DNA from: Candidatus Shapirobacteria bacterium
GTDB lineage: Bacteria; Patescibacteriota; Microgenomatia; UBA12405
Assembly: GCA_041649835.1 (NCBI GenBank)
Contig: JBAZML010000004.1
Span: forward strand, 1 to 62,552
Reading direction: 5' to 3'
DNA: 62,552 bases
Shown: positions 49,736-61,641 of the stretch, piece after piece
Position numbering within the stretch: position 1 is the stretch's first letter
Layout: each line of letters begins with the position of its first letter
Notes under the pieces: generated by a model
Databases searched by the model: none
What the model was told of the DNA's origin: nothing
Seen by the model: only the letters and a program-made list of their open reading frames with translations
Translations under genes and position numbers: made by a program

Positions 49736-50815
49736 TTAGAGCCTTTTGATAAGTTTTAATAGTTTAAGATTTGGTGACGGTGGAATTGAGGAGGTATTTT
49801 TTTTAATATATAAAAGTTTATAGATAGCACTATCAAGTGAATCACTGGTAAGTTCCGCATCTTTAATTATAATTGTATTTTTGGGTGATTTTTTTTGTAA
49901 CCATAAAGCATTTTTAAGTTGTTCATCTTGTTGGCTTATGGGTAAGGGAATAACAATGGAATTGAGATTTAAGGTGGCAATTTCTTGGGTTGTATTGGCA
50001 CCGGCCCGGCTGATAGTAACTGCAGCATGATGAAATACCCAACCAATATCAGCTGAATCAATGTAGTCTTTGGTTATGTAATTAGGGAATTTTTTAGAAA
50101 GCCGGCTGAAGGACTTGAAATCTTTTGGTCCGGTTTGATGGATAACTGTAAAATTTTGAGTCAGAAAAGATAATAACTTTTTTAAAATTATGTTTAGGTG
50201 ATGAGAACCTTGATTACCTGCAGTAAGATAAATCAGTGGAAATTTTTTGAGATTGAATTTTTCTTTTTCGAAAGTTTCGGAGTGAATATTAAATATTTCT
50301 CTTCGAAGAAGATTACCAGTCAAATGATGTTTGTCAGACATTTTTTGAATCGGAAAGGAGAGAGCTGTAAATTGCGAAAAGAGTGAATTAATTCTGGTAG
50401 ATAAACTCAGAGTTTGAGTTTGTTCATGAGTAATGGAAGGGATTTTATTAAAATAGGCGGCTATGACGACGGGAACGGAGACATAACCACCAAAGGAAAC
50501 AACCAGATGGGGTTTAATTTTAGTGATGATTTTATGAGCCTCCTTAAAGCCGATAAAAATTTGGGGTAAACCGGAAAGAGTATTTGGTAACCAACGACGA
50601 TCAAATTTACCACAAGGAATACCGTAAAATTTAACTTTATAGTGCGGAATTATTTTTGATTCAATTGAAATTTCTGTATCAACACTGGAATTAAATTGCC
50701 GACCAATGTAATAGATATCCCAGTTGATGTCGCGATCATCTCTTAGTTGATGAATTAATTCAAGAGCGGGAGTGGTGTGGGTGCCGGTAATGATTATTTT
50801 TCTCGTTTCGGTCAT
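49736..50815 (-). CDS. murG: Lipid I N-acetylglucosaminyltransferase MurG
   Basis: TGTHTTP, FGGYVSVP, HEQ, GNLLR, GNQGS, SRAGANT, Q..NA. Confidence 0.92.
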   Translation of the reverse strand: MTETRKIIITGTHTTPALELIHQLRDDRDINWDIYYIGRQFNSSVDTEISIESKIIPHYKVKFYGIPCGKFDRRWLPNTLSGLPQIFIGFKEAHKIITKIKPHLVVSFGGYVSVPVVIAAYFNKIPSITHEQTQTLSLSTRINSLFSQFTALSFPIQKMSDKHHLTGNLLRREIFNIHSETFEKEKFNLKKFPLIYLTAGNQGSHHLNIILKKLLSFLTQNFTVIHQTGPKDFKSFSRLSKKFPNYITKDYIDSADIGWVFHHAAVTISRAGANTTQEIATLNLNSIVIPLPISQQDEQLKNALWLQKKSPKNTIIIKDAELTSDSLDSAIYKLLYIKKNTSSIPPSPNLKLLKLIKRL

Positions 50816-51890
50816 TAACTGAGTATAGCAATTTAGAATATCTTTTTTCGATATTCATAGCCAAACCAAGAGCGCAAAACAAGGTTATTAATGAAGATCC
50901 TCCATAGGCGATGAAAGGAAAAGGAATGCCGGTTAGTGGTATCAGGGCAACAATAGCTGCGAAATTAATTAAACCTTGATAAGCAATCCAACAGGCAATG
51001 CCCCCCAAAAGTAATTTTTCGTAAAGTTCGGTAGCGATTTGAGAAATTCGAATAAGACGAGAAATTAATAACAAATATAAATAAGTAATCAGAGTCAAAC
51101 CGATAAATCCTGTCTCTTCACCGACAATAGCCAGTATCGAATCGGTACTAATTTTGGGGAGAAACTTGTATTTATGATCAGAATTGGCAAAACCTTTACC
51201 TGATAATCCGCCAGAGGCAAGTGACAAAATCATTTGTTCACTGTGATAACTAAGATTTTGGTCGGTCTGTTGATTTAATAAAGTTTTGACACGATTAAGT
51301 CGGTATGGAGATATCAAAATCAATAACAAACTCATGATAGTAATGACAAATCCCGCTGAAAATAGACTCAATATTTCTGCACCTGATAAATAGTATATGG
51401 AGATAACAATGGCAGAAATCATAACGGTAGTACTCAGATTTGGTTCAGAAATAATCAAAATTAAAGGTAGTCCTAAATATAAGGCTAAATTTTTGAGATT
51501 TCTTTTTTCCGACAATGAAAATAAATAAGAAAAAAAGATAACTGATGCCAGTTTGAAAAGTTCAGAGGGTTGAAAATTAAAAAATCCGAGATCAATTTGT
51601 CGTCGGGCTCCAAGAATTTTAAGGCCAATTCCGGGAATTAAGACTAAAATTAGCAGGATAACGGAGACAAAATAAATTCGAAAAGAATTGTTGACAAAAA
51701 TACTCAGTTTGATTTTTGAAATGATGAACATACAGATGAATCCGAATCCTAGCCAGATGAGTTGTTTTTTTAAAAAAAAATACGGATCACCAAGAGTTTT
51801 TTCAGCCTCAAAAAGTGATGAAGAAGAAATAAAAAGAAGACCAATAAATGACAAAAGTGACGAATAAGTGAACAAGGGAGATATCTTCAT
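50760..51890 (-). CDS. ftsW: SEDS protein FtsW
   Basis: KKQLIW, GARRQI, FQPSELFK, EPNLS, YRLNR, GIPFPFIAYGGSS. Confidence 0.93.
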   Translation of the reverse strand: MKISPLFTYSSLLSFIGLLFISSSSLFEAEKTLGDPYFFLKKQLIWLGFGFICMFIISKIKLSIFVNNSFRIYFVSVILLILVLIPGIGLKILGARRQIDLGFFNFQPSELFKLASVIFFSYLFSLSEKRNLKNLALYLGLPLILIISEPNLSTTVMISAIVISIYYLSGAEILSLFSAGFVITIMSLLLILISPYRLNRVKTLLNQQTDQNLSYHSEQMILSLASGGLSGKGFANSDHKYKFLPKISTDSILAIVGEETGFIGLTLITYLYLLLISRLIRISQIATELYEKLLLGGIACWIAYQGLINFAAIVALIPLTGIPFPFIAYGGSSLITLFCALGLAMNIEKRYSKLLYSVNDRNEKNNHYRHPHHSRS

Positions 51891-51891
51891 T

Positions 51892-52983
51892 TCAAAATTT
51901 TGCTAGGATTTCAGGTCTAATAATAATTGGATCAATTTGATTTGAAAATATTTCAAATGAATTATATTTTTGGATGGTAATCCCCTTTTGATCTCTTTTG
52001 GTTAATTCCGAACCGATTATATTTTGATTGCTAAATCTTTTTTGTTCCTGAGCAATATCGATTGAGTAATTTAAATTGATAAATTCGGCTAAGTGATAAT
52101 AAAAAAGAGGGGTTAAATTGTTAATTAATTCAATTTGGGTATAAAAAGCAAAAGAAGCGGTCAGACGGGGATTACACTCCAGTAGATAAACCTGATTATC
52201 TGAGACAATAAAGTCTAAACCAAAAAAACCACGATAATTTAATGGTTTTAATATTTTTTCAGAAAAATTGGTAGTGATTTGATTTATTTGTTCCTGAATT
52301 TCCACGGGTGCAAGGGAGGGCCATTGGCGTCCAACTGTGGCAAAAGGATTTTGGGTAAAATCGATTAGACCAGTATATTGAAGTGCCGGAGGACTTTGAA
52401 TTAATCCGTAACGAGTGAGACAACAATTATTTAATAAAGAATAACCTGTTAAAAGCGGCGAAAATTTGGCTAAAGTTTTTTGGGGAATAATAGTTTGAGC
52501 AATTTCATAATTATTGAAATGGTGAGTACTGTTACCTGCCCAACCAAAATGAGTTTGGATAATTAAATTTTCACCGAATTTTTCCTGGGTTTTTTTAAAA
52601 GATTCCTGATTGAATTCCGCAATTATACCCGGTACAACCGGTAATTTATTTTGTTGACATATATCGAAGAATTTAACCTTATCTTCTAAAAATCGGTTCA
52701 TAGAAGCGGCATTACTGGCATTAATCCAGTGATTTTTTAAAGTTAAATGTTCAATTTTAGCGGAAGGTTTAAAAGGAATAATGACGGGTTTTGGAAATAA
52801 TTTTATTTTTTCTTGAATATTATTTTGAGACAAAAGGAAACCGCTATTTTTTATTTTTAAATTATCTTGAAAAATAGACTGAAAATTAGGTAGCTCGGGC
52901 AAATTTATGTCTAAAAATTTGTCGACTACTAAGAAGAAAAAATCGTAACCGGAATTTTTTAATAAATCTTCTAAATGATTCAT
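51892..52983 (-). CDS. ATP-grasp carboxylate-amine ligase of unknown specificity
   Basis: LEDKVKFF, FGWAGNST loop, YRGFFGLDFIV...VYLLECNPR. Confidence 0.82.
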   Translation of the reverse strand: MNHLEDLLKNSGYDFFFLVVDKFLDINLPELPNFQSIFQDNLKIKNSGFLLSQNNIQEKIKLFPKPVIIPFKPSAKIEHLTLKNHWINASNAASMNRFLEDKVKFFDICQQNKLPVVPGIIAEFNQESFKKTQEKFGENLIIQTHFGWAGNSTHHFNNYEIAQTIIPQKTLAKFSPLLTGYSLLNNCCLTRYGLIQSPPALQYTGLIDFTQNPFATVGRQWPSLAPVEIQEQINQITTNFSEKILKPLNYRGFFGLDFIVSDNQVYLLECNPRLTASFAFYTQIELINNLTPLFYYHLAEFINLNYSIDIAQEQKRFSNQNIIGSELTKRDQKGITIQKYNSFEIFSNQIDPIIIRPEILAKF

Positions 52984-53780
52984 AATCTGGCGGTACCGGT
53001 CAACAAAATAACCGGATATTCCCCAACTTCAAAGCTTTTTCGGGCTTCATAGAATGAGGCAAGGGTTAATGCAGATTCGGGAGAAGCTCTAAATTGTTTC
53101 ATAAATTCGAGACAATTGATTGCCTGAGTGTTTTTGACGATAATTCCAATACCTTGATGTTTTTTTATTGCCTGAATAATTTCCTTTTTTAGAGGTAGAT
53201 ATTTGACACTGAGAGCGTCGGTAATAGTTTCTGTTTCTAGTGTATATTGAGGGTCAAAGCTACTACAGATAGTGGGATTACTGGCGGGTTGAGCAGCGAA
53301 AATTTTAACGCTATCGGGCATAATTTTGCTGATTCCCAAAAGGGTGGTGCCGCTGCCGACAGGAATAAAAATACTGGTGATTTGAGGTAATTGGGCTAAT
53401 ATTTCGGTGGTAATTTGACCGTAGCCGGTTTGAGCAGTAATGTCGGTTGATTGACGAAGTAGATATGATTGGTTGGCTTTTGAAAATTTGATGGCATCAC
53501 TAATGGGTTTAAGGGATTCGATAATATGTCCTTTGATAAGGGATAATTTTTTGGGATTAATGTTTGGAGATACAAAAACGGTTAAAGGGATGCTGGCCTG
53601 TTGACAGTAAAAAGAGGCTGAAATAGCAGCGTTGCCAGTAGAGGAAATTACCGCTGATTTAAAGTCATTATTAATTAAATTTTGAACTTGTAAGGGCAAG
53701 GCTCGGTCTTTGGCTGAACCGGTAGGATTTTGATCTTCTCTCTTGAAATAAATTTCATCAATTTTGGTTAAGGGTGTCAT
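52980..53780 (-). CDS. Fold-type II PLP-dependent enzyme (threonine synthase/cysteine synthase-like)
   Basis: KREDQNPTGSAKDR (PLP lysine), SSTGNAA, PVGSGTT phosphate loop, VILLTG. Confidence 0.88.
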   Translation of the reverse strand: MTPLTKIDEIYFKREDQNPTGSAKDRALPLQVQNLINNDFKSAVISSTGNAAISASFYCQQASIPLTVFVSPNINPKKLSLIKGHIIESLKPISDAIKFSKANQSYLLRQSTDITAQTGYGQITTEILAQLPQITSIFIPVGSGTTLLGISKIMPDSVKIFAAQPASNPTICSSFDPQYTLETETITDALSVKYLPLKKEIIQAIKKHQGIGIIVKNTQAINCLEFMKQFRASPESALTLASFYEARKSFEVGEYPVILLTGTARL

Positions 53781-53849
53781 ATTAGATAAATAGTTGATTA
53801 GATGAGTAGATGTGTAATAATCGAATTGATTATATTTTAACTAAATTAT

Positions 53850-54014
53850 ATGTCAGATACTAATAATAAGGTTATTTGTCCTGATTGTCAGGTAGAGATA
53901 GAAAGTGAAACTTTCGGAGTGGGAGATATTCTAGAATGTCAGGAATGTGGAACTGAGGTAGAAATCATATCAATAAATCCGTTACAATATCGTGAATTAG
54001 TTGAGGAGAAGTAA
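53850..54014 (+). CDS. LysW-like small acidic Zn-ribbon (amino-group carrier-like) protein, 54 aa
   Basis: Not in ORF track (under 60 aa). MSDTNNKVICPDCQVEIESETFGVGDILECQECGTEVEIISINPLQYRELVEEK: two CxxC pairs in the LysW pattern (CPxC...GDILxCxxCGxExEx...P.L); ends EEK rather than EDWGE. Confidence 0.82.
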   Translation: MSDTNNKVICPDCQVEIESETFGVGDILECQECGTEVEIISINPLQYRELVEEK

Positions 54015-54542
54015 GCGGTAAGCTCCATCATATTTGAAACTATTATCAGTGATTTCAAACTCTCCATAACGGACTCCCCTACCTAGTCGGGAAGAATCAA
54101 CGTAAATTACCTTGTTACCAATTTTTTCGATAACGAATAAAAGATGGTGGCCATTTTTTTGACGGATTAAATCGGCAGTTTGAATGTCATGAACATCGAT
54201 TCTTTTTGATAGAGGATGTGAGGTAAGCATGTCGGCGGAGATGCGGCGGACATCAAGATTGATAGAAAAATAGAAATTTAAGAGATGACAAGCGAGACCA
54301 GAGCAGTCGATACCTAATTGGTGTTTCTTCTGAAAATTGTAGATTTGTTGAGGACTTAAATCGATTATTTTAATATTCTCATTATTGGCAAATTCAATGG
54401 TTTTTAAGGCTAATTCTTTGGCATTTCCTTTGCCGATTAAAGTATTATCAGATGAAATTTGCTTGGGAATATTAGTGTGATACGGCAAGCCGATGTATTT
54501 TAGAATTTCCTGACGGAGTTCTTCTAGTTTAATCCGAGCCAT
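53997..54542 (-). CDS. NlpC/P60-like (papain-fold) protein
   Basis: YIGLPY...GIDCSGL...ADLI....GHH...VDSS. Confidence 0.75.
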   Translation of the reverse strand: MARIKLEELRQEILKYIGLPYHTNIPKQISSDNTLIGKGNAKELALKTIEFANNENIKIIDLSPQQIYNFQKKHQLGIDCSGLACHLLNFYFSINLDVRRISADMLTSHPLSKRIDVHDIQTADLIRQKNGHHLLFVIEKIGNKVIYVDSSRLGRGVRYGEFEITDNSFKYDGAYRLLLLN

Positions 54543-55558
54543 AATCCAAAAATTGCTAATATGACTGTTGCCAGCCAGGCTCTAAATACTATTTTTGGTT
54601 CTTCCCAACCATTTTTTTGCAGGGTTAAATGAATTGGAGCTGCCGGAAATAATTTTTTATGAAGGTATATTTTACTAAAGATTTGTAAAGCACTAGACAT
54701 ACCTTCGATAATAAATGGGGCGCCAACAATAAACAAAGGAACTACTTTACCTAGTAGTAGAGCGATAACAGCGAAGGTGGCACCAAAAGAGAGAGAACCA
54801 ACATCACCGAGCCAAATACGGGCTGGGTAAACATTGAAATAGAGAAAGGCAATTAAAGATCCTATCCATAAAGATAGAAATAGAGAAATGGGTGTATCCA
54901 ATGAAGTTCCGGCCAAAATCCAAAAGGCAAAAAGGGAAATCATTAAGGTACCACAAGCTAATCCATCTAAACCGTCGGTAATATTGAAAAAATTAGCAAA
55001 AGCAACAATGATTATTGTAGAGATAGGAATAAAAAACAGACCCAGGCTAACGGCGCCGATAAAAGGTAAATAGATAAAATTGATACCAAGTTGAAAGTAA
55101 ATAAGTAAGGAAATAATGGTTGCCAAAACCAACTGAAGTAACAACTTGTATTTCATCCGAAGACCAAAAAATCCGGTATTTTTAAAATTAAAAAACTTGA
55201 GAATATCATCGTAAAGTCCAAGGAGGCCAAAACTTATAAAGGTAAAGAAAATAACGATTAGTTCGTTAATTAAATGATAATTACTGGAAATAAAAAGTCG
55301 TGACATTTTTAAAATTGGGAACAGAAATGAGAACAAAATGACAACGGTGAGAATAATCAAAAGTCCCCCACCAACAGGAGTGCCGCTTTTTTGAGCATGA
55401 AATTTATCAAAAATAGGGGTACTTTTATTTTGAAAATCTAGAGTTGATTGCTTTTGCCGTTGAAATTTTAATCGGTAAAGAAGATTAATATAGGGAACTA
55501 CCAGGATGCTGGTGGCGAGGAAGGAAAACAATAATAGGCCGAGGTATAGGTGGATCAT
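54524..55558 (-). CDS. mraY: Phospho-MurNAc-peptide transferase MraY
   Basis: KSGTPVGGG, GLYDD, NITDGLDGL, WLGDVGS, APIH. Confidence 0.95.
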   Translation of the reverse strand: MIHLYLGLLLFSFLATSILVVPYINLLYRLKFQRQKQSTLDFQNKSTPIFDKFHAQKSGTPVGGGLLIILTVVILFSFLFPILKMSRLFISSNYHLINELIVIFFTFISFGLLGLYDDILKFFNFKNTGFFGLRMKYKLLLQLVLATIISLLIYFQLGINFIYLPFIGAVSLGLFFIPISTIIIVAFANFFNITDGLDGLACGTLMISLFAFWILAGTSLDTPISLFLSLWIGSLIAFLYFNVYPARIWLGDVGSLSFGATFAVIALLLGKVVPLFIVGAPFIIEGMSSALQIFSKIYLHKKLFPAAPIHLTLQKNGWEEPKIVFRAWLATVILAIFGLWLGLN

Positions 55559-56883
55559 GTTTTTATATATTTTATATTAGCACCAAGGGAACAGAGCCGG
55601 TCGGCTAACTTTTCATATCCTCGCTCAATAAATTCAACATTATCGATAATACTTTCACCGTTTGCTGTCAGAGCAGCCAATGTGGCGGTGGCACCAGCCC
55701 TCAAATCGGAGACGGCGATGTGAATTGGTTTTAATTTTGAAGGACCGTATATTTTGACTCCATGAAAATATTCGAGATTATCCGATTCAGGATTAAAATG
55801 GTAGTACTCTGAGGGATTGGTGACTTCCGGATTAAAAAATTTTGTTTTGGCTCCCATCTGATTTAGAGTGCTGATATGTTGAAAACGTGAAGGAAATATT
55901 TTTTCAATAATGGAGCTACAACCAACAGATTGTGTCAGAACCAAACTAAAAATTGCTTGCCAATCGGTCATGAATCCTGGTTCGGGACCGGTTTCAATAT
56001 CAATGGCTTTTAAGTTTTTAACCCAATTTATGGAAATTTCATCTCTACCCCGAATTACTTGTGCCCCCATTAGTTCAATGATTCTTAAAAAAGTTTCAAT
56101 ATTTGTAGGTCTAATCCGCATAATATTAATTGAACCTTTGGTACATAATGCGGCACAGGCAAAGGTTACGGTTTCATTTCGGTCACCGATGATTTGATGT
56201 TCTGTTCCGTTAAGTACTGAAACGCCTTTGATATAAATTTTTTTTGGATCAGAGGTGTCCCGTTTTATCTTGGCCCCCATGTCATTTAACATTTCAATGA
56301 GATCATCTATTTCTGGCTCTAGGGCGGCATTTCTAATAACTGTTTCACCATTGGCAACAGCGGCCGTCATGATTACCACTTCGGTGACAGTGTGGGATGG
56401 TTTTGGAAATTCAAAATCGGTTGCTTGAATTCCGGAAGTAGTGAAACGTAAATGATCAGAAAACTCTTCGACATTAATATTCATTTTTTTGTAACATTCG
56501 AAAAGCCGATCAAGAGGTCTGGCACCCAATTTGTCACCACCTGGAATTGGGACGATAGCTTCGCCACAACGAGCCAATAAAGGAGCGGCGAACATAAATG
56601 AGGAACGGGAAACATTTCCGGTACCGTGTGGAACAACCGATGAGTTAATTTTATTGGTGGTGATTTCCAAGCTGTGAGTGCCGGTATAATTTATCGTTGA
56701 ACCCATTGATTTGGCGATACTTTCGGTAATATGAACATCTGATATGCAGGGAACATTGAGTAAATGAGTAGTCTCTTTGGATAGAAGACTGGCAATTATT
56801 TGTTTAAATGAAGCATTTTTGGCACCTCGGATGGAAACTTCACCATTTAGTGGTTTACCACCATTAATAATATATCGGGACAT
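55555..56883 (-). CDS. murA: UDP-GlcNAc 1-carboxyvinyltransferase
   Basis: GAKNA, PGGDKLGARP (Asp at the Cys115 position), EPEIDDL, PGFMTD, DLRAGA, RGYE. Confidence 0.93.
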   Translation of the reverse strand: MSRYIINGGKPLNGEVSIRGAKNASFKQIIASLLSKETTHLLNVPCISDVHITESIAKSMGSTINYTGTHSLEITTNKINSSVVPHGTGNVSRSSFMFAAPLLARCGEAIVPIPGGDKLGARPLDRLFECYKKMNINVEEFSDHLRFTTSGIQATDFEFPKPSHTVTEVVIMTAAVANGETVIRNAALEPEIDDLIEMLNDMGAKIKRDTSDPKKIYIKGVSVLNGTEHQIIGDRNETVTFACAALCTKGSINIMRIRPTNIETFLRIIELMGAQVIRGRDEISINWVKNLKAIDIETGPEPGFMTDWQAIFSLVLTQSVGCSSIIEKIFPSRFQHISTLNQMGAKTKFFNPEVTNPSEYYHFNPESDNLEYFHGVKIYGPSKLKPIHIAVSDLRAGATATLAALTANGESIIDNVEFIERGYEKLADRLCSLGANIKYIKT

Positions 56884-58181
56884 TATTTATTATTTTTGTA
56901 TAAATTAATAATTTTTTGAAATATTTTTAGACCATCAGAACCACCAGAACTAAAGTGTACCAGTATGTCACCAGTTTTTAGACTATTTTGGTAATGTTTT
57001 ACAATCTCTTCCGGAATAGGTAAATAAATACTACGGGGAATAATATTTAAGAAATCTTTGGCAATGAGACGGTCGGATTGTTTTATCTTGGAATTGAATT
57101 TTAATTTATAGATTACTGTTTCAGTGGCAAGTTCAAAAGATGGTAATAAAAGGTTTAAATTGGAACGATATTGCATAAATGAGGCGTGATTTTCATAAAA
57201 AACTTTTAATCTCGATTGGGGATGGGTATCTTTTATGGCTTTGAGTGCAGCACCAATTCTGTCGGCTGATTGGGCAAAATCATCGATAAAGATTATTCCT
57301 TTATTATTTCCAACCACTTCTAAACGTCTTTTTATACCTTTAAAATTTTTGAAACTTCTCTTTATTGATTCTGAAGATATCTTGAGCTTATTTGCCAAGG
57401 TTTCAACTGCCCCTAGATTTTCCTGATTATGTTTGCCTAACAACTGATTGGATATTTTGGTTTCACTGTAGGGTATTTTTTGACATTTGGCGAAACTAAG
57501 CAAAGGTAAAATTAAGGTATCATTTGAATTGTAAATTAAAAGACCATCTTTGGGGATGTTCTCTACCAATTGTTTGAAAGCATTAAAATTTTCGTTTTCA
57601 TTAGAATAACTTTCCCGATGTTCCCATTTGGCACTGGTTAGGATTAGGTATTTGACAGGGTAATATAAAAATTTAGCTTTGGTATCAAGTCCATTTATTG
57701 ATTCGTCGGCTTCGACAACTGACCAATTTGAATTGGAAAAATGGAGAGAATCTAAGCGATTAAGGCTTTGACCTCCAATCATGTAAGCAGGGTCATAATT
57801 AGCATTTTTAAGCAAATAAGTGACGGCAGCAGTAATGGTGGTTTTGCCATAAGACCCGGCAATTAAAATGGAGTTGTTCTTAATTAGGTTTTGGGAAATG
57901 TATTGAGTGGCGGAAATGTAGGGAATTTTTTGAATTTTTATATCTTCAAAATCTGTCTGAGTATTATGGAATGAAGCATAGGATGAACCGATAATAGCTA
58001 AATCAATCTGAGAATTAATCTCTGTCTGATTTATGGGAATGTTGGCTTTTTTTAGTTGTTTATTGAAAGGCGGATAGGTTTTTTCCTGATCTGACCCGCT
58101 TATTTGATGACCTTGTTTTTGTAGAGCTAAGGCAAGTGGCGCTGTCATGGAACCGGCAATGCCAACAAGGTGTATATGCAT
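56883..58181 (-). CDS. MurC-family ligase, Mpl-like (UDP-MurNAc:peptide ligase)
   Basis: IHLVGIAGS, GSDQEKTYPP (Mpl-type GSDxxxYPP), AGSYGKTT, VEADE, GIKRRLE, DDFAQ. Confidence 0.75.
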   Translation of the reverse strand: MHIHLVGIAGSMTAPLALALQKQGHQISGSDQEKTYPPFNKQLKKANIPINQTEINSQIDLAIIGSSYASFHNTQTDFEDIKIQKIPYISATQYISQNLIKNNSILIAGSYGKTTITAAVTYLLKNANYDPAYMIGGQSLNRLDSLHFSNSNWSVVEADESINGLDTKAKFLYYPVKYLILTSAKWEHRESYSNENENFNAFKQLVENIPKDGLLIYNSNDTLILPLLSFAKCQKIPYSETKISNQLLGKHNQENLGAVETLANKLKISSESIKRSFKNFKGIKRRLEVVGNNKGIIFIDDFAQSADRIGAALKAIKDTHPQSRLKVFYENHASFMQYRSNLNLLLPSFELATETVIYKLKFNSKIKQSDRLIAKDFLNIIPRSIYLPIPEEIVKHYQNSLKTGDILVHFSSGGSDGLKIFQKIINLYKNNK

Positions 58182-58183
58182 AT

Positions 58184-58786
58184 CTATTGATTATATGACA
58201 ACCACTGCCCTTGAGTAAAATACTGGAATCCTGGGAAATTTCTTTTGTAGTAGCCAAGCTTGGTTTTGGCATTAAAACGTCCCAAGTAACAATACTTTAA
58301 CTTTGAATTAAAACTATCAGTAACTAACTGGAGGGAGAGTCTAATGGGTAAATCATTGTGAGCTAATTTGGGATTATAAAAAACATAGGCTATATGAGAG
58401 ATATTTTTATCGATATAGCAAATTGAGTAGGCACAAATTTGCTTATCCTGGTCATACCATTCATATAGATAGTTAAAAATATGATTGATGAATACGGTTT
58501 TTATTGAGGATACTGGGAATTCCCAACCCAATTCTTTGACCCAACTGACAAGTTGTTTTTGAATTTTGGGAGTATATAAAAACTCAGATAGAGGAATTAG
58601 TTTGTAGGTAAAATTTTCGGTTTTTTTGATAATTCTTCTGTTTTCTGATGATAATTGAAATAAATTCAAATTGCATCGAGAACTGGAATTTTCATCAATG
58701 TAAAAAGTATGTTTGGAATTTCGTTGTGGTAAAAGACCATTTTGATAATTTTCTTCAATCGAATGATCGTTTTGGATATTATACAT
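58184..58786 (-). CDS. Bpt/ATE-like aminoacyl-tRNA-dependent transferase
   Basis: SR..LNLFQLSSENRRIIKK, YVFYNP.L...L, YCYLG....GYYK..F align by eye with the ATE_N/ATE_C pattern of Bpt. Start moved to MYNIQ, overlapping the murE stop. Confidence 0.65.
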   Translation of the reverse strand: MYNIQNDHSIEENYQNGLLPQRNSKHTFYIDENSSSRCNLNLFQLSSENRRIIKKTENFTYKLIPLSEFLYTPKIQKQLVSWVKELGWEFPVSSIKTVFINHIFNYLYEWYDQDKQICAYSICYIDKNISHIAYVFYNPKLAHNDLPIRLSLQLVTDSFNSKLKYCYLGRFNAKTKLGYYKRNFPGFQYFTQGQWLSYNQ

Positions 58787-60032
58787 TTTGAGATTTAAGC
58801 CGAAAGGCAGTTCTAAAAGCTTCGGCTTCTGACCAGGGATATTCAGTGGAGCCATGAAGAATACTAGTTTCATGACCTTTGCCACAGGCGATAATAGTGT
58901 CCCCTGCTTTGGCGATTTTAATTGCTAGGTTGAAGGCATCCTGACGGTTGGGAATATTGGCATAATGAAATTTACTTGGGTCGGTAATAATCGGATTCAA
59001 TGAATCAATTAAAATTGATTTTTGAAGATTAATCCCGGAAATTATTTGTTGATTTATATCTTCGACTTTTTCATTTCTGGTATCGTCAGCAGTAATAATG
59101 GCAATATCTGACAATTCAGATACATTTTTTCCCATTATGGGCCTTTTACTTTTGTCCCGGCCACCGGTAGCTCCAAAAATAACAATTATTCTACCTTTGG
59201 TAGTGAGACGAAGAGAGGAAAGGGTAACCAAAAGAGCGTTGGGAGTATGGGCAAAATCAATGATTGTCTTTAGATGAAGACTGTTTTCAATTATTTCTCG
59301 ACGACCTTTAGTTTCGGGAAATTTGATAATTGTTTGAGAGAATATTTTTGGATCAAGGTTTAATTTTGAAAATACAGCAAAACTAGCCAGAATATTATAG
59401 ATTTGATATTCATAATTACTGTCGGTAGTTAGCTTATGATCATTTACGGTAAAGTTTAGGGTATTGGAATCGATTTCTATATTTTTGGCAGTAAAATCGG
59501 ATTTATTTTTTATACTATATGTTGAAACCGGAATAGTAATCATTTTACTTAGTGCCTGATATTGAGAGTCATCACGGTTAATGACACCGAAGTCAGATTG
59601 TGAAAAGAGTTTGGCTTTGGTAGCGGTGTAATTTTCAATTGTTTTGTGGTAATCAAGGTGCTCGTGAGAAATATTGGTTATCAAACTTATTTTAAAATGA
59701 CAGCCAAAATATCGATATTGATCAATGGCGTGTGAGGTGACCTCGCAAATGACATGGGTATAACCATTTTTTTGGTAATCCAAAAACATTTGTTGAAGTA
59801 TTTTGGGATCAGGACTGGTGGTGTGTAGGCCAGGAGAACTTATGGTACTAATGACTCCACATTTTATACCGCTGTTTTCCAATAGTTTTTGTAATAAGGT
59901 ACAGGTAGTAGTTTTACCGTCAGTTCCGGTGACTCCAATTAGAATAAGTTTACGGCTAGGAAATTTAAAATATAGATTCCAAAATATGCTTTGAGGTAAG
60001 TGCCAAAGGAGATTTTTTAATTTACGAATCAT
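58779..60032 (-). CDS. murE: UDP-MurNAc-dipeptide--diamino acid ligase MurE
   Basis: GVTGTDGKTT, CEVTSH, TNISHEHLDYH, IDFAHTP, FGATGGRDKSKRPIMG, DDTR, GKGHE. Confidence 0.9.
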   Translation of the reverse strand: MIRKLKNLLWHLPQSIFWNLYFKFPSRKLILIGVTGTDGKTTTCTLLQKLLENSGIKCGVISTISSPGLHTTSPDPKILQQMFLDYQKNGYTHVICEVTSHAIDQYRYFGCHFKISLITNISHEHLDYHKTIENYTATKAKLFSQSDFGVINRDDSQYQALSKMITIPVSTYSIKNKSDFTAKNIEIDSNTLNFTVNDHKLTTDSNYEYQIYNILASFAVFSKLNLDPKIFSQTIIKFPETKGRREIIENSLHLKTIIDFAHTPNALLVTLSSLRLTTKGRIIVIFGATGGRDKSKRPIMGKNVSELSDIAIITADDTRNEKVEDINQQIISGINLQKSILIDSLNPIITDPSKFHYANIPNRQDAFNLAIKIAKAGDTIIACGKGHETSILHGSTEYPWSEAEAFRTAFRLKSQNV

Positions 60033-60045
60033 AAAAGATGTTTAA

Positions 60046-61641
60046 TTATAACAAAGGCTTCAATTTTTGAGCTATTTCGAACCAGATTGGGGCAGCGGTT
60101 GATGAGCCCCATTGAGATAATTTGGGATTGTTAACGGTGACAATCATAGTAAATATGGGATCGACACAAGGATAAAAACCAATGTATGAACCAATAGTGT
60201 TGGAATCGATATATTCCCCCTTTATAGCAACCTGAGCAGTACCACTTTTAGCACAAACTTCCATGTCTTTTGGTTTTAAAACGGCAATAGGACTATTATC
60301 GACAGCATAGCTTAAAATATCCCTCATTAAAGCCATGGTTTCGGGACTGTAGACGTCACTTTTTTCAATGGGACTATTTTGATTCAGATGGACTTTTACT
60401 AATTGACCATTGTTGGCGATAGCGTTGAAGGCTTGAATCATCTGGAGTTGATTTACAGCCAATCCCTGGCCAAAAGCAGCAGTGGCCAAATCAATATCCG
60501 GCCAAATTGTTTTAAGAGGAGAGATTGATTCTCCGGTTAATTCAACCCCGGTTTTTTGATCGAGTTTCAAACGATGAAAATAATCTAGGAAATTCTTTAA
60601 TCCCATTTCACCAATTATGTAACTCATGCCAATATTATCGGAATTTTTAATAATATCTTTTAAAGTCGAATCGGCATGGAAATTGTTGTCCCAGTTGTTG
60701 ATTGTATATTGACCAATAGTTCTGGATTGATTACATTTTTGACAGATAAAGTCAGAACTGATGCTTTTGGAATCCAAAGCGGCAGACATAATTAAGGGTT
60801 TAAAAATAGATCCCGGTTCAAATAAATCACTTATATTGGATACTTTTGTTTTTTCTTGGGCAGAAGGACTGGATTCGTAGCTAGCCATGGTAATAATTTC
60901 ACCACTTTGAGGTTTTATAATAATTATTGAGGCTGAATCAGCCTGATATTTTTCAACTCCTGCCTTTAAGGCTTTTTCAGATAAAAATTGAATTTGACGA
61001 TTGAGAGAAGTACGAATATTTTGGCCGTCTATTTCATTTTTTTGCCAATTTTTACGGGTTAATAAATTTCCTCCAGTACCATCAACAATGGTTCTGGTGA
61101 AACCGATTTGTCCGGAAATTTGTCGACGGTAATATCTTTCCAGGTTAAAAATAATATTTGAAGCTAAATTTTTTTCCGGGTAATAACGATTTTGTTTTAA
61201 ACTAAAATCTAAGCCATCAAGAGTTGACAATTTGAGCATTTCATCACGATTGAATTGAGTGATAAATTCCATCCATTTTTGAGCCGGATTGTTATATTTT
61301 TCTAAAGCTTTGGCGTTTTGGGTAGCAAATTCTGGTTTGATAGCGCTTATCTCGGTTAGAATTTCAGATAAATCTTTTTTAAAATTTGGCTTGTAAAAAG
61401 CAAGATTATAATAAGAATAGTCTAAACTTAGGGGATAATTATCTGAACTTAAAATGTGTCCCTGTTGAGGAACAATTTTTTCCAGTTTATATATTTGGGA
61501 AATAGCTTTATCATGAAGTTCCTGGCCTTTGATTACCTGCCAATAAAATAATTTGGCTAATATAAAAATAAAACAAATATAAATAGTAACTAGAATTGTT
61601 TTAGGGCGTGATGATTCCATTGAGGGCGTATTTGTTGGCAA
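60046..61641 (-). CDS. ftsI: Class B penicillin-binding protein (FtsI/PBP3-like)
   Basis: N-terminal TM; SxxK (GSIFK), SDN, KSGTAQ. Confidence 0.9.
   Translation of the reverse strand: MPTNTPSMESSRPKTILVTIYICFIFILAKLFYWQVIKGQELHDKAISQIYKLEKIVPQQGHILSSDNYPLSLDYSYYNLAFYKPNFKKDLSEILTEISAIKPEFATQNAKALEKYNNPAQKWMEFITQFNRDEMLKLSTLDGLDFSLKQNRYYPEKNLASNIIFNLERYYRRQISGQIGFTRTIVDGTGGNLLTRKNWQKNEIDGQNIRTSLNRQIQFLSEKALKAGVEKYQADSASIIIIKPQSGEIITMASYESSPSAQEKTKVSNISDLFEPGSIFKPLIMSAALDSKSISSDFICQKCNQSRTIGQYTINNWDNNFHADSTLKDIIKNSDNIGMSYIIGEMGLKNFLDYFHRLKLDQKTGVELTGESISPLKTIWPDIDLATAAFGQGLAVNQLQMIQAFNAIANNGQLVKVHLNQNSPIEKSDVYSPETMALMRDILSYAVDNSPIAVLKPKDMEVCAKSGTAQVAIKGEYIDSNTIGSYIGFYPCVDPIFTMIVTVNNPKLSQWGSSTAAPIWFEIAQKLKPLL

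Follow-up and report, generated by a model that had tools for sequence, protein, structure and literature searches.

Between mraY and ftsW in the division and cell wall (dcw) cluster of a Candidatus Shapirobacteria bacterium, the position held by murD in Escherichia coli, reside adjacent genes for a fold-type II pyridoxal 5′-phosphate (PLP) enzyme and an ATP-grasp protein. The cluster is carried by the 62,552-nucleotide contig JBAZML010000004.1 (contig C4), referred to here in its whole length as the window, from a 1.16-Mb assembly (GCA_041649835.1) that is 99.7% complete. With a Lys-tailed LysW-like carrier and a putative P60-like hydrolase, the two enzymes constitute a four-gene module, accompanied by two co-varying genes, that is specific to candidate phyla radiation (CPR) genomes without MurI and canonical MurD and is embedded among genes for peptidoglycan precursor synthesis. 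The PLP enzyme gene (52980-53780, minus strand; 266 amino acids) ends in a TGA (52982-52980) that shares an ATGA overlap (sequence AGATTATGAATC) with the ATG (52983-52981) of the ATP-grasp gene (51892-52983, minus strand; 363 amino acids). Downstream of the pair is ftsW (50760-51890, minus strand; Pfam FTSW_RODA_SPOVE, 269 bits), the ATG of which lies at 51890, 1 nt past the ATP-grasp TGA (51894-51892; sequence TTTTGAAATGAAG), and which is translationally coupled to the ATP-grasp gene; the upstream flank is formed by mraY (54524-55558, minus strand). The overlap, the 1-nt gap and the shortness of the PLP enzyme had been described in an earlier, sequence-only reading of the window and are confirmed by the open reading frames (ORFs) and the sequence; its placement of the pair in the murD slot holds as well, in a genome that lacks murD, and a role in peptidoglycan precursor synthesis is supported. 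An overlap of 4 nt is by itself nothing unusual. It is in its conservation that the arrangement goes beyond chance, a PLP enzyme gene followed by an ATP-grasp gene recurring in more than 45 loci of several CPR classes.

The other two members of the module were, respectively, absent from the sequence-only reading and left unlinked to the pair there. The first is a LysW-like zinc-ribbon ORF of 54 amino acids (53850-54014, plus strand; MSDTNNKVICPDCQ...ECQECGTEVEIISINPLQYRELVEEK), which appears when the 216 bp upstream of the PLP enzyme gene, an apparent “gap,” are read on the opposite strand. It is divergent from the PLP enzyme gene across a 70-bp spacer and convergent with the next gene, with an 18-nt 3′ overlap. 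The product exceeds the cut-off of the Pfam model Zn_ribbon_LysW (PF21344; 35.9 bits versus 27) and scores 38.6 bits, under the cut-off of 53.2, with TIGR01206 (lysW). Its C-terminus reads ...RELVEEK, and a C-terminal Lys following an acidic stretch (EEK, IEK, VEK, IQK or EGK) is found in all of the at least 33 LysW-like homologues. The gene lies beside the PLP enzyme gene at every complete locus, and in some assemblies its small size could let it escape gene callers.

The second is an ORF of 181 amino acids (53997-54542, minus strand) containing the motifs G-I-D-C80-S-G, G-H-H133 and Y-V-D-S-S, which alignment resolves into the family-wide invariants GxDCSG, GxH and Yx(H/D)SS. Similarity to the Pfam NLPC_P60 model (E 0.02-0.07) and to Spr/MepS, the sole matches among Protein Data Bank (PDB) profiles (E 0.6-1), is in all cases sub-threshold. 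From its motifs, this protein is probably an NlpC/P60-like cysteine hydrolase. A P60-like paralogue in genome G042 is accompanied by a C39-like peptidase and a 952-amino acid GyrB ORF with an apparent intein insertion (L141, 8777-11635).

The distribution of these genes was surveyed in 251 genomes of the same class, each at least 80% complete, with thresholds of E ≤ 1e-30 for the ATP-grasp family and E ≤ 1e-33 for the PLP enzyme. The ATP-grasp family occurs in 42 of them, comprising all 15 genomes of the window’s own family together with members of eight other families. The PLP enzyme is present in 41 of these 42 holders and in none of the 209 remaining genomes (Fisher p=2e-46). MurD, scored over its cut-off in 178 of the 251 genomes, is found in no holder (p=3e-28), and neither is MurI, which is over its cut-off in 70 genomes (p=3e-7); all three p values ignore shared ancestry. 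The 181-amino acid family is represented in 49 genomes, namely 41 of the 42 holders and eight others, and the lone holder without either this protein or the PLP enzyme is an 81%-complete genome. One of the co-varying genes, a homologue of ATE/Bpt aminoacyl-tRNA transferases, is confined to 28 of the 42 holders (all except the Gottesmanbacteria, family f37) and is likewise missing from the other 209 genomes.

Synteny was compared in the same manner, using 54 loci from named GTDB genomes together with 10 from the class and 10 from other classes. Over more than 45 loci, drawn from several classes of the CPR, module content is constant and gene order shuffled, the lineages including Shapirobacteria, Gottesmanbacteria, Dojkabacteria, Magasanikbacteria, Paceibacterota and others. 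Many of the module-bearing CPR contigs are deposited as “uncultured Gammaproteobacteria,” “Candidatus Methanoperedens” or “Clostridia bacterium” and are evidently mislabelled or mis-binned. In Shapirobacteria the order is murE, ATE-like gene, ligase, murA, mraY, P60-like gene, LysW-like gene (opposite strand), PLP enzyme, ATP-grasp and ftsW; in Gottesmanbacteria it is P60-like gene, MurD-type ligase, LysW-like gene (opposite strand), PLP enzyme and ATP-grasp. Loci of other classes (Magasanikbacteria, Paceibacterota and so forth) display either murB (opposite strand), ATP-grasp, P60-like gene, mraY, ATE-like gene, ligase, LysW-like gene (opposite strand) and PLP enzyme, or alternatively ligase, LysW-like gene (opposite strand), PLP enzyme, ATP-grasp, P60-like gene, mraY and ftsW. 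Two sub-pairs are never separated: the LysW-like gene is always divergent from the PLP enzyme gene, and outside the Microgenomates the ATP-grasp gene is always followed by the P60-like gene.

Gene fusions occur along the same lines. An ORF of 688 amino acids (L061, 11448-13514, genome G531) joins the ATE-like protein to the ligase, its residues 8-222 and 227-686 being 63% and 59% identical to the separate genes of genome G428. Another, of 628 amino acids (L104, 6716-8602), joins the ATP-grasp to the P60-like protein, and in G428 the ATP-grasp carries a C-terminal Nudix-box domain (547 amino acids; L062, 13653-15296). An apparent fusion of the PLP enzyme to the ATP-grasp (L082, 626 amino acids) retains only residues 21-220 of the PLP portion and may be an indel artifact; it was not used.

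The two co-varying genes of the window lie upstream of the murD slot. The ATE/Bpt-like homologue (58184-58885, minus strand) scores 24.5 bits with Pfam ATE_C (cut-off 25) and 23-29 bits with NCBIfam arginyltransferase models. Its neighbor (56883-58181, minus strand; 432 amino acids) is a MurC/Mpl-like ligase that reaches 201 bits with TIGR01082 (murC; cut-off 335) and 154 bits with the mpl model, matches E. coli Mpl (128 bits) and MurC (87 bits) when these serve as queries, and branches separately in the tree, as its own clade next to MurC and Mpl. Both genes are present, and a MurD-type gene is lacking, in the window’s genome and in all holders other than Gottesmanbacteria (variant B). The Gottesmanbacteria (G036 and G117; variant A) possess instead a canonical MurC (432 bits), MurE, MurF, MurT and FolC and no ATE-like gene. 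They also contain, between the P60-like and LysW-like genes of the module (L038/L040, on G036:C6 and G117:C8), a divergent MurD of 467 amino acids that scores 190 bits against a cut-off of 212, compared with 290-420 bits for other members of the class. The MurT-like protein of the same genomes (L042/L043), a lipid II isoglutaminyl synthase subunit, has a Cys4 ribbon.

Comparison of the two variants indicates that the ATE-like protein and the variant ligase together substitute for MurC and MurD, and that the four constant genes, which correlate with the absence of MurI, act upstream of the step that joins Ala to Glu. The ATP-grasp is for these reasons not read as a plain analogue of MurD, since the loss of MurC and MurD is tracked by the ATE-like protein and the variant ligase and the absence of MurI by the four constant genes. 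Nor is it mutually exclusive with a MurD-type ligase, as Gottesmanbacteria carry both in a single module, which weakens a one-for-one equivalence. The same reasons make it improbable that the residue is put into the peptide stem by the ATP-grasp.

The remainder of the genome is consistent with a gap at this point of the pathway. Its genes with a Mur ligase domain are four only, namely MurE, the MurC/Mpl-like ligase, MurF (C13:27072-28286) and FolC. A canonical MurE (319 bits, over the cut-off of TIGR01085) is encoded, and MurA is also present, as are MurB, Ddl (C13:25009-25893) and Alr (C13:25957-27087), the last three identified by phmmer with E. coli queries. The same type of search gave no match in this genome for MurD, MurI, ThrB or ThrC, none for Asd or CysK, and for ThrA a 23-bit match only, alternative kinase types lying outside the search; CysE has weak matches (29 and 22 bits), and no Aminotran_4 protein, the family of D-amino-acid aminotransferase, is present in the genome. 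The sequence-only reading had found no other Thr or Cys pathway genes in the window, and this now extends to the whole genome. The D-Ala branch is thus ordinary, and all known sources of D-glutamate (D-Glu), together with the enzyme that adds it, are missing. Replacement of Ddl or Alr by the pair is ruled out by the canonical Alr, Ddl and MurF on contig C13. These three genes form a cluster there (C13:25009-28286), apart from the dcw cluster and with ddl on the opposite strand.

The PLP enzyme matches Pfam PALP (131 bits versus a cut-off of 35) and falls far short of every curated family cut-off. Its top NCBIfam match is the archaeal-type ThrC PRK08329 (90 bits versus 358), and scores with TIGR00260 thrC (23.6 bits versus 167), SbnA (49 bits; cut-off 350) and cysK (23 bits; cut-off 351) are lower still. 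The PLP lysine is the invariant K24 within the segment NPTGSAKDR, which fits the (S/T)xKDR signature of ThrC-type enzymes and a fold-type II fold. Across 53 sequences the family also preserves S46-S47-(S/T)48-G49-N50-A-A, L108-R109-x-S111, S143-G144 and T261-G262. The window’s protein by itself has its best single-sequence PDB matches among fold-type II racemases (3e-8). Longer homologues (277-328 amino acids) display the N-terminal ThrC motif GIW(K/Q)(Y/F)...L(K/G)EG(D/N)T and match ThrC structures best (E 4e-17), so the family is an offshoot of ThrC; relative to these homologues, the Shapirobacteria version has lost its N-terminal segment.

Like the short-type ThrC proteins of Aquifex (2ZSJ), Bacillus subtilis (6CGQ) and Thermus thermophilus (1UIM), then, the family contains NPTGSxKDR, SxGN and a C-terminal TG, with the GIW(K/Q)(Y/F) N-terminus in relatives, and unlike them it has an identity of only about 20-25%, lacks the N-terminal segment in the window’s protein and is unaccompanied by thrA or thrB. 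Aligned to these three structures, the 53 sequences have LR(Q/P)S...G(Y) in place of the ThrC loop NSxNPxRxEGQKT, GNA in place of GNT and (G/S)SGT in place of GNAGN. Gly or Ala thereby replaces the Arg of NSxNPxR, Ala the Thr of GNT and Ser, Gly or Thr the Asn of GNAGN, residues that we take to be the binders of the substrate phosphate in T. thermophilus ThrC, and Arg109 and Ser111 are new invariants. With the phosphate-binding residues lost, the enzyme is not a threonine synthase. Its scores, the altered active-site loop and the missing pathway genes rule out a genuine ThrC or CysK.

The structural model (AlphaFold2; predicted local distance difference test score, pLDDT, 94) resembles serine racemase, ThrC, threonine deaminase and aspartate racemase alike (template modeling [TM] score 0.83-0.88, about 20% identity), with 0.84-0.88 for ThrC structures and, as the top fold matches, 0.86-0.87 for racemases. 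Identity to the fold-type II racemases (serine racemase and aspartate racemase 5YBW) is about 20%. At the position of their second acid/base, a Ser on the re face opposite the PLP Lys, the family has a hydroxyl residue, residue 48 being Ser in 31 and Thr in 22 of the 53 sequences. ThrC also carries Thr at this position, and so the residue proves nothing.

The ATP-grasp protein is similarly remote from characterized families. It exceeds the cut-off of Pfam ATP-grasp_3 (35.7 bits versus 23.2), whereas the NCBIfam model PRK06524, labeled “biotin carboxylase,” gives 85 bits against a cut-off of 684. The residues for Mg and ATP (K102, D257 and E269-x-N271-x-R273) are intact and conserved. With a high-scoring model (AlphaFold2 pLDDT 95), the Foldseek top 50 consists of PurK, biotin carboxylase and PurT at TM scores of about 0.6 and 12-15% identity and includes no LysX, RimK or Ddl; LysX and RimK models are also absent from the NCBIfam and Pfam matches, and assignment of the protein to that group is therefore unsupported. 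Ddl models match over about 50 residues of the ATP-binding core only (E 4e-4 to 4e-3). Distant homologues (475-490 amino acids, 23-29% identity; L027 in G193 and L028 in G089) occur in MurD-positive genomes, where they adjoin genes for RimK-like “alpha-L-glutamate ligase-like” proteins and a 7-TM protein and have neither PLP enzyme nor LysW-like genes nearby. That cluster is a separate amidoligase system; it marks the relatives of the ATP-grasp as amidoligases without informing on the substrate. By homology, the protein is predicted to be an amidoligase of a CPR-specific family, and the module is not ThrC, Ddl or LysX.

What, then, would such a module do? That the four constant genes replace the D-Glu branch of peptidoglycan precursor synthesis, standing in for MurI always and for MurD in most lineages, is a proposition to which we assign about even confidence, and it is favored by the absence of MurI and MurD from all 42 holders. 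Residue 2 of the stem is probably ordinary D-Glu, given the canonical MurE and the MurT of Gottesmanbacteria. The constant association of the ATP-grasp with a Lys-tailed LysW-like protein and a P60-like protein fits the loading and unloading of a carrier. PLP chemistry requires a free α-amine, and a carrier-bound substrate would consequently have to hang by its side chain from the terminal Lys amine, the only invariant functional group of the carrier.

In the scheme that can be drawn from these elements, the ATP-grasp would use ATP to join the γ-carboxyl of L-Glu to the ε-amino group of the carrier’s C-terminal Lys, leaving the α-amino and α-carboxyl groups of the tethered Glu free. Amide formation of a comparable kind is carried out by the ATP-grasps MfnD, PylC and Aslfm. 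The ThrC-derived PLP enzyme would then form an aldimine with the tethered residue and invert its Cα. In the window’s genome, the tethered D-Glu might next receive L-Ala from Ala-tRNA through the ATE-like transferase, ATE/Bpt enzymes being known to aminoacylate N-terminal Glu or Asp; in Gottesmanbacteria, it might instead receive L-Ala in the form of UDP-N-acetylmuramic acid (UDP-MurNAc)-L-Ala through the embedded divergent MurD, whose divergence and location hint that it takes the tethered form. The P60-like hydrolase would cut the γ-D-Glu-Lys amide, and NlpC/P60 enzymes typically cleave γ-D-Glu-diamino-acid bonds. Finally, in the window’s genome, the MurC/Mpl-like ligase could place the released L-Ala-D-Glu on UDP-MurNAc, much as Mpl-type ligases add preformed peptides to this nucleotide, after which the canonical MurE, MurF and MraY would continue. 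The net result would be an ATP-driven, one-way conversion of L- to D-Glu, which would owe its direction to an L-specific loader and to a D-specific releaser. That the full scheme holds, with stem residues 1 and 2 made off the nucleotide sugar on an amine-presenting carrier and with MurI, MurC and MurD replaced across much of the CPR by a route that depends on protein and tRNA, is possible but doubtful.

Several observations weigh against replacement of the D-Glu branch by the module. The association tests ignore shared ancestry, and the module is present in about nine GTDB families of the class sample, although the pattern recurs across these families and in other classes. Within the class, 70 of the 178 MurD-positive genomes have MurI over its cut-off, and the other 108 lack it and do so without the module, so that absence of MurI does not by itself call for the module and other, undescribed sources of D-Glu must exist in the class. 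The nearest relatives of the PLP enzyme are threonine synthases rather than racemases, the fold search leaves racemase, synthase and dehydratase tied at a TM score of about 0.85, and we know of no fold-type II glutamate racemase. The ATP-grasp is closer to PurK, biotin carboxylase and PurT than to any carrier-loading ligase, and the P60 assignment draws on motifs only. We infer, moreover, all three of the loaded amino acid, the attachment atom and the type of PLP reaction, and four proteins and ATP for the work of one MurI make a costly arrangement that is not parsimonious. A few genomes, in addition, keep the P60-like gene without those for the PLP enzyme and ATP-grasp. In three of these (G051, G140 and G109; loci L143, L144 and L146) it sits beside murE/murF; murE, murF and mraY are kept, and MurC, MurD and the ATE-like, PLP and ATP-grasp genes are all missing, which perhaps represents a still more reduced variant dependent on scavenged precursors. 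In two further pair-less genomes the contexts of the P60-like genes are unrelated, and the neighborhoods of this gene outside the module are accordingly no more than suggestive.

The most serviceable of the other explanations is a replacement by two enzymes, with the PLP enzyme acting as a soluble glutamate racemase on free L-Glu and the LysW-like protein serving as an accessory subunit only. It accounts for the position of a pair coupled to ftsW in the murD slot and for the lack of both MurD and MurI in the holders; ATP-grasp and Mur ligases share acyl-phosphate chemistry, and in other genomes of the class murI is often found beside murD. However, the MurD-type ligase within the Gottesmanbacteria module would make the ATP-grasp redundant, the loss of MurC and MurD follows the ATE-like protein and variant ligase rather than the ATP-grasp, and neither the strict Lys tail of the carrier nor its P60-like partner, with the fusion of the latter to the ATP-grasp, is explained. 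A replacement of this simpler kind is unlikely.

The sequence-only reading had proposed that the pair makes a non-standard stem or bridge residue and ligates it. The cell-wall role stands, and the non-standard residue and its ligation into the stem fare less well than a new route to standard D-Glu. Under this proposal an unusual amino acid (D-Asp, D-Ser, a diamino acid or a lanthionine-like residue) would be added in the manner of Aslfm/Racfm of Enterococcus. Residence of the pair in the dcw cluster and the departure of the PLP enzyme’s substrate loop from that of ThrC speak for it, and there is a chemical parallel as well, in that Aslfm-type ATP-grasps acylate the ε-amine of Lys and the ...E-K tail of the carrier resembles the end of a stem tripeptide. 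However, it does not say what fills position 2 when MurD and MurI are missing, and the presence of the module is tied to the absence of D-Glu genes. The canonical MurE, together with the MurT of Gottesmanbacteria holders, argues against such a residue in stem or bridge, and similarity to Ddl is confined to the core (E ~1e-3). We regard this proposal as quite unlikely.

It is also conceivable that the carrier itself is the nucleophile, in the style of SbnA or of CysM with CysO. The PLP enzyme would generate an aminoacrylate or vinylglycine from a phospho- or acyl-amino acid, the ε-amine of the terminal Lys would attack to give a diamino-acid-type adduct, and the ATP-grasp and hydrolase would then process it. 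Descent from ThrC implies β/γ chemistry, the carrier and PLP enzyme genes are always paired as are cysO and cysM, the terminal amine is invariant and a weak match to SbnA (49 bits) exists. Yet the ThrC phosphate-binding residues are replaced, activated donors are unlikely in a genome that lacks ThrB, Asd and CysK and has weak CysE matches, a secondary-amine adduct could not be released by a hydrolase, the module has no oxidoreductase, and the D-Glu gap would be left unfilled; this route is very improbable. Least of all does the evidence favor an ordinary threonine (or cysteine) synthase brought into the cluster by chance with an unrelated protein-modifying ligase, a reading that we consider extremely unlikely, for although the top family matches are named threonine synthase and relatives are annotated “threonine synthase” or “threonine dehydratase,” the score is far under every curated cut-off (90 versus 358 bits), credible ThrA and ThrB as well as Asd and CysK are missing, substrate-loop residues are changed, the ligase does not group with RimK, and the tie to peptidoglycan genes holds strictly and across the phylum, with the PLP family in none of the 209 non-holder genomes of the class.

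Replacement of the D-Glu branch by a carrier-based module would have partial counterparts among known systems. In the LysW/ArgW systems (Thermus, Sulfolobus and Thermococcus, and AmCP of Streptomyces), a carrier is loaded by LysX/ArgX, its cargo modified by LysZ/Y/J and released by LysK. The module shares with them a zinc-ribbon protein of about 54 amino acids that has an acidic, flexible tail and exceeds the threshold of the LysW Pfam model, as well as linkage of its gene to those for an ATP-grasp, a modifying enzyme and a hydrolase, a logic of loading, modification and release. However, the tail ends in Lys, an amine, rather than in the EDWGE of LysW with its Glu γ-carboxyl, so that attachment would have the opposite polarity. 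The ATP-grasp does not resemble LysX/RimK, the putative releaser is P60-like rather than an M20 LysK, and modification would fall to a fold-type II PLP enzyme, for which the α-amine that LysW blocks has to be free. The genomic context, too, is peptidoglycan rather than Lys or Arg synthesis.

A precedent for the ATP-driven, one-way epimerization of a tethered Glu is provided by MurL (PMC8788868). In the MurD2/MurL route of Xanthomonas and Micromonospora, the tether is UDP-MurNAc-L-Ala; the epimerase is cofactor-independent and acts through an adenylate intermediate (PMC8788868). Like that route (PMC8788868), the module is proposed to replace MurI in organisms without a known source of D-Glu, by ATP-dependent, one-way inversion on tethered Glu rather than on the free pool. 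Unlike it, the module would use a protein as tether and a PLP enzyme as catalyst, and the only homology between the parts of the two systems is that of the MurD-type ligase in the Gottesmanbacteria variant.

Individual steps have further parallels. The D-Asp ligase Aslfm of Enterococcus faecium is an ATP-grasp that acylates the ε-amine of Lys, using a D-amino acid’s side-chain carboxyl, and its gene neighbors that of the Asp racemase Racfm. GspSA (glutathionylspermidine synthetase/amidase) is a fusion of an ATP-grasp synthetase with a papain-like amidase for which the same amide is the substrate, comparable to the fusion of ATP-grasp and P60-like protein at L104. Neither has a specific sequence or fold relation to the module, in which the acceptor would be a protein tail and the type of racemase differs.

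The gene order of the cluster as a whole is of the dcw type. On the minus strand are rsmH, ftsI (60046-61641), murE (58779-60032), the ATE-like gene, the MurC/Mpl-like ligase, murA and mraY, followed by the 181-amino acid gene, the PLP enzyme, the ATP-grasp, ftsW, murG, ftsA and ftsZ. Upstream of the PLP enzyme start is a candidate promoter, CTGACA-16-TATAAT (11/12; 53829-53856, minus strand), and a weaker candidate on the plus strand (53794-53821) precedes the LysW-like gene; both come from a consensus scan in which the region has no more sites than shuffled sequences do.

MurC to MurF and a source of D-Glu, which are targets of antibiotics, count as nearly universal among bacteria that have a wall. 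Whole CPR lineages, among them Shapirobacteria, Gottesmanbacteria and members of several other classes, lack MurI and mostly lack MurD, and carry in their place one and the same unstudied set of genes, no description of which was found in the full-text literature. Database names for the proteins of the module, which are “threonine synthase,” “threonine dehydratase,” PLP-dependent lyase/thiolase, biotin carboxylase or hypothetical, are corrected where they point to threonine metabolism or biotin carboxylation. If D-Glu or L-Ala-D-Glu is indeed made on a protein carrier, this would be the third known route to D-Glu, after MurI/Dat and MurD2/MurL. The carrier would be the first to present an amine, a mirror image of LysW, and the ThrC lineage would have gained a new activity. 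Such a route would also explain how these organisms build a wall with a minimal genome.

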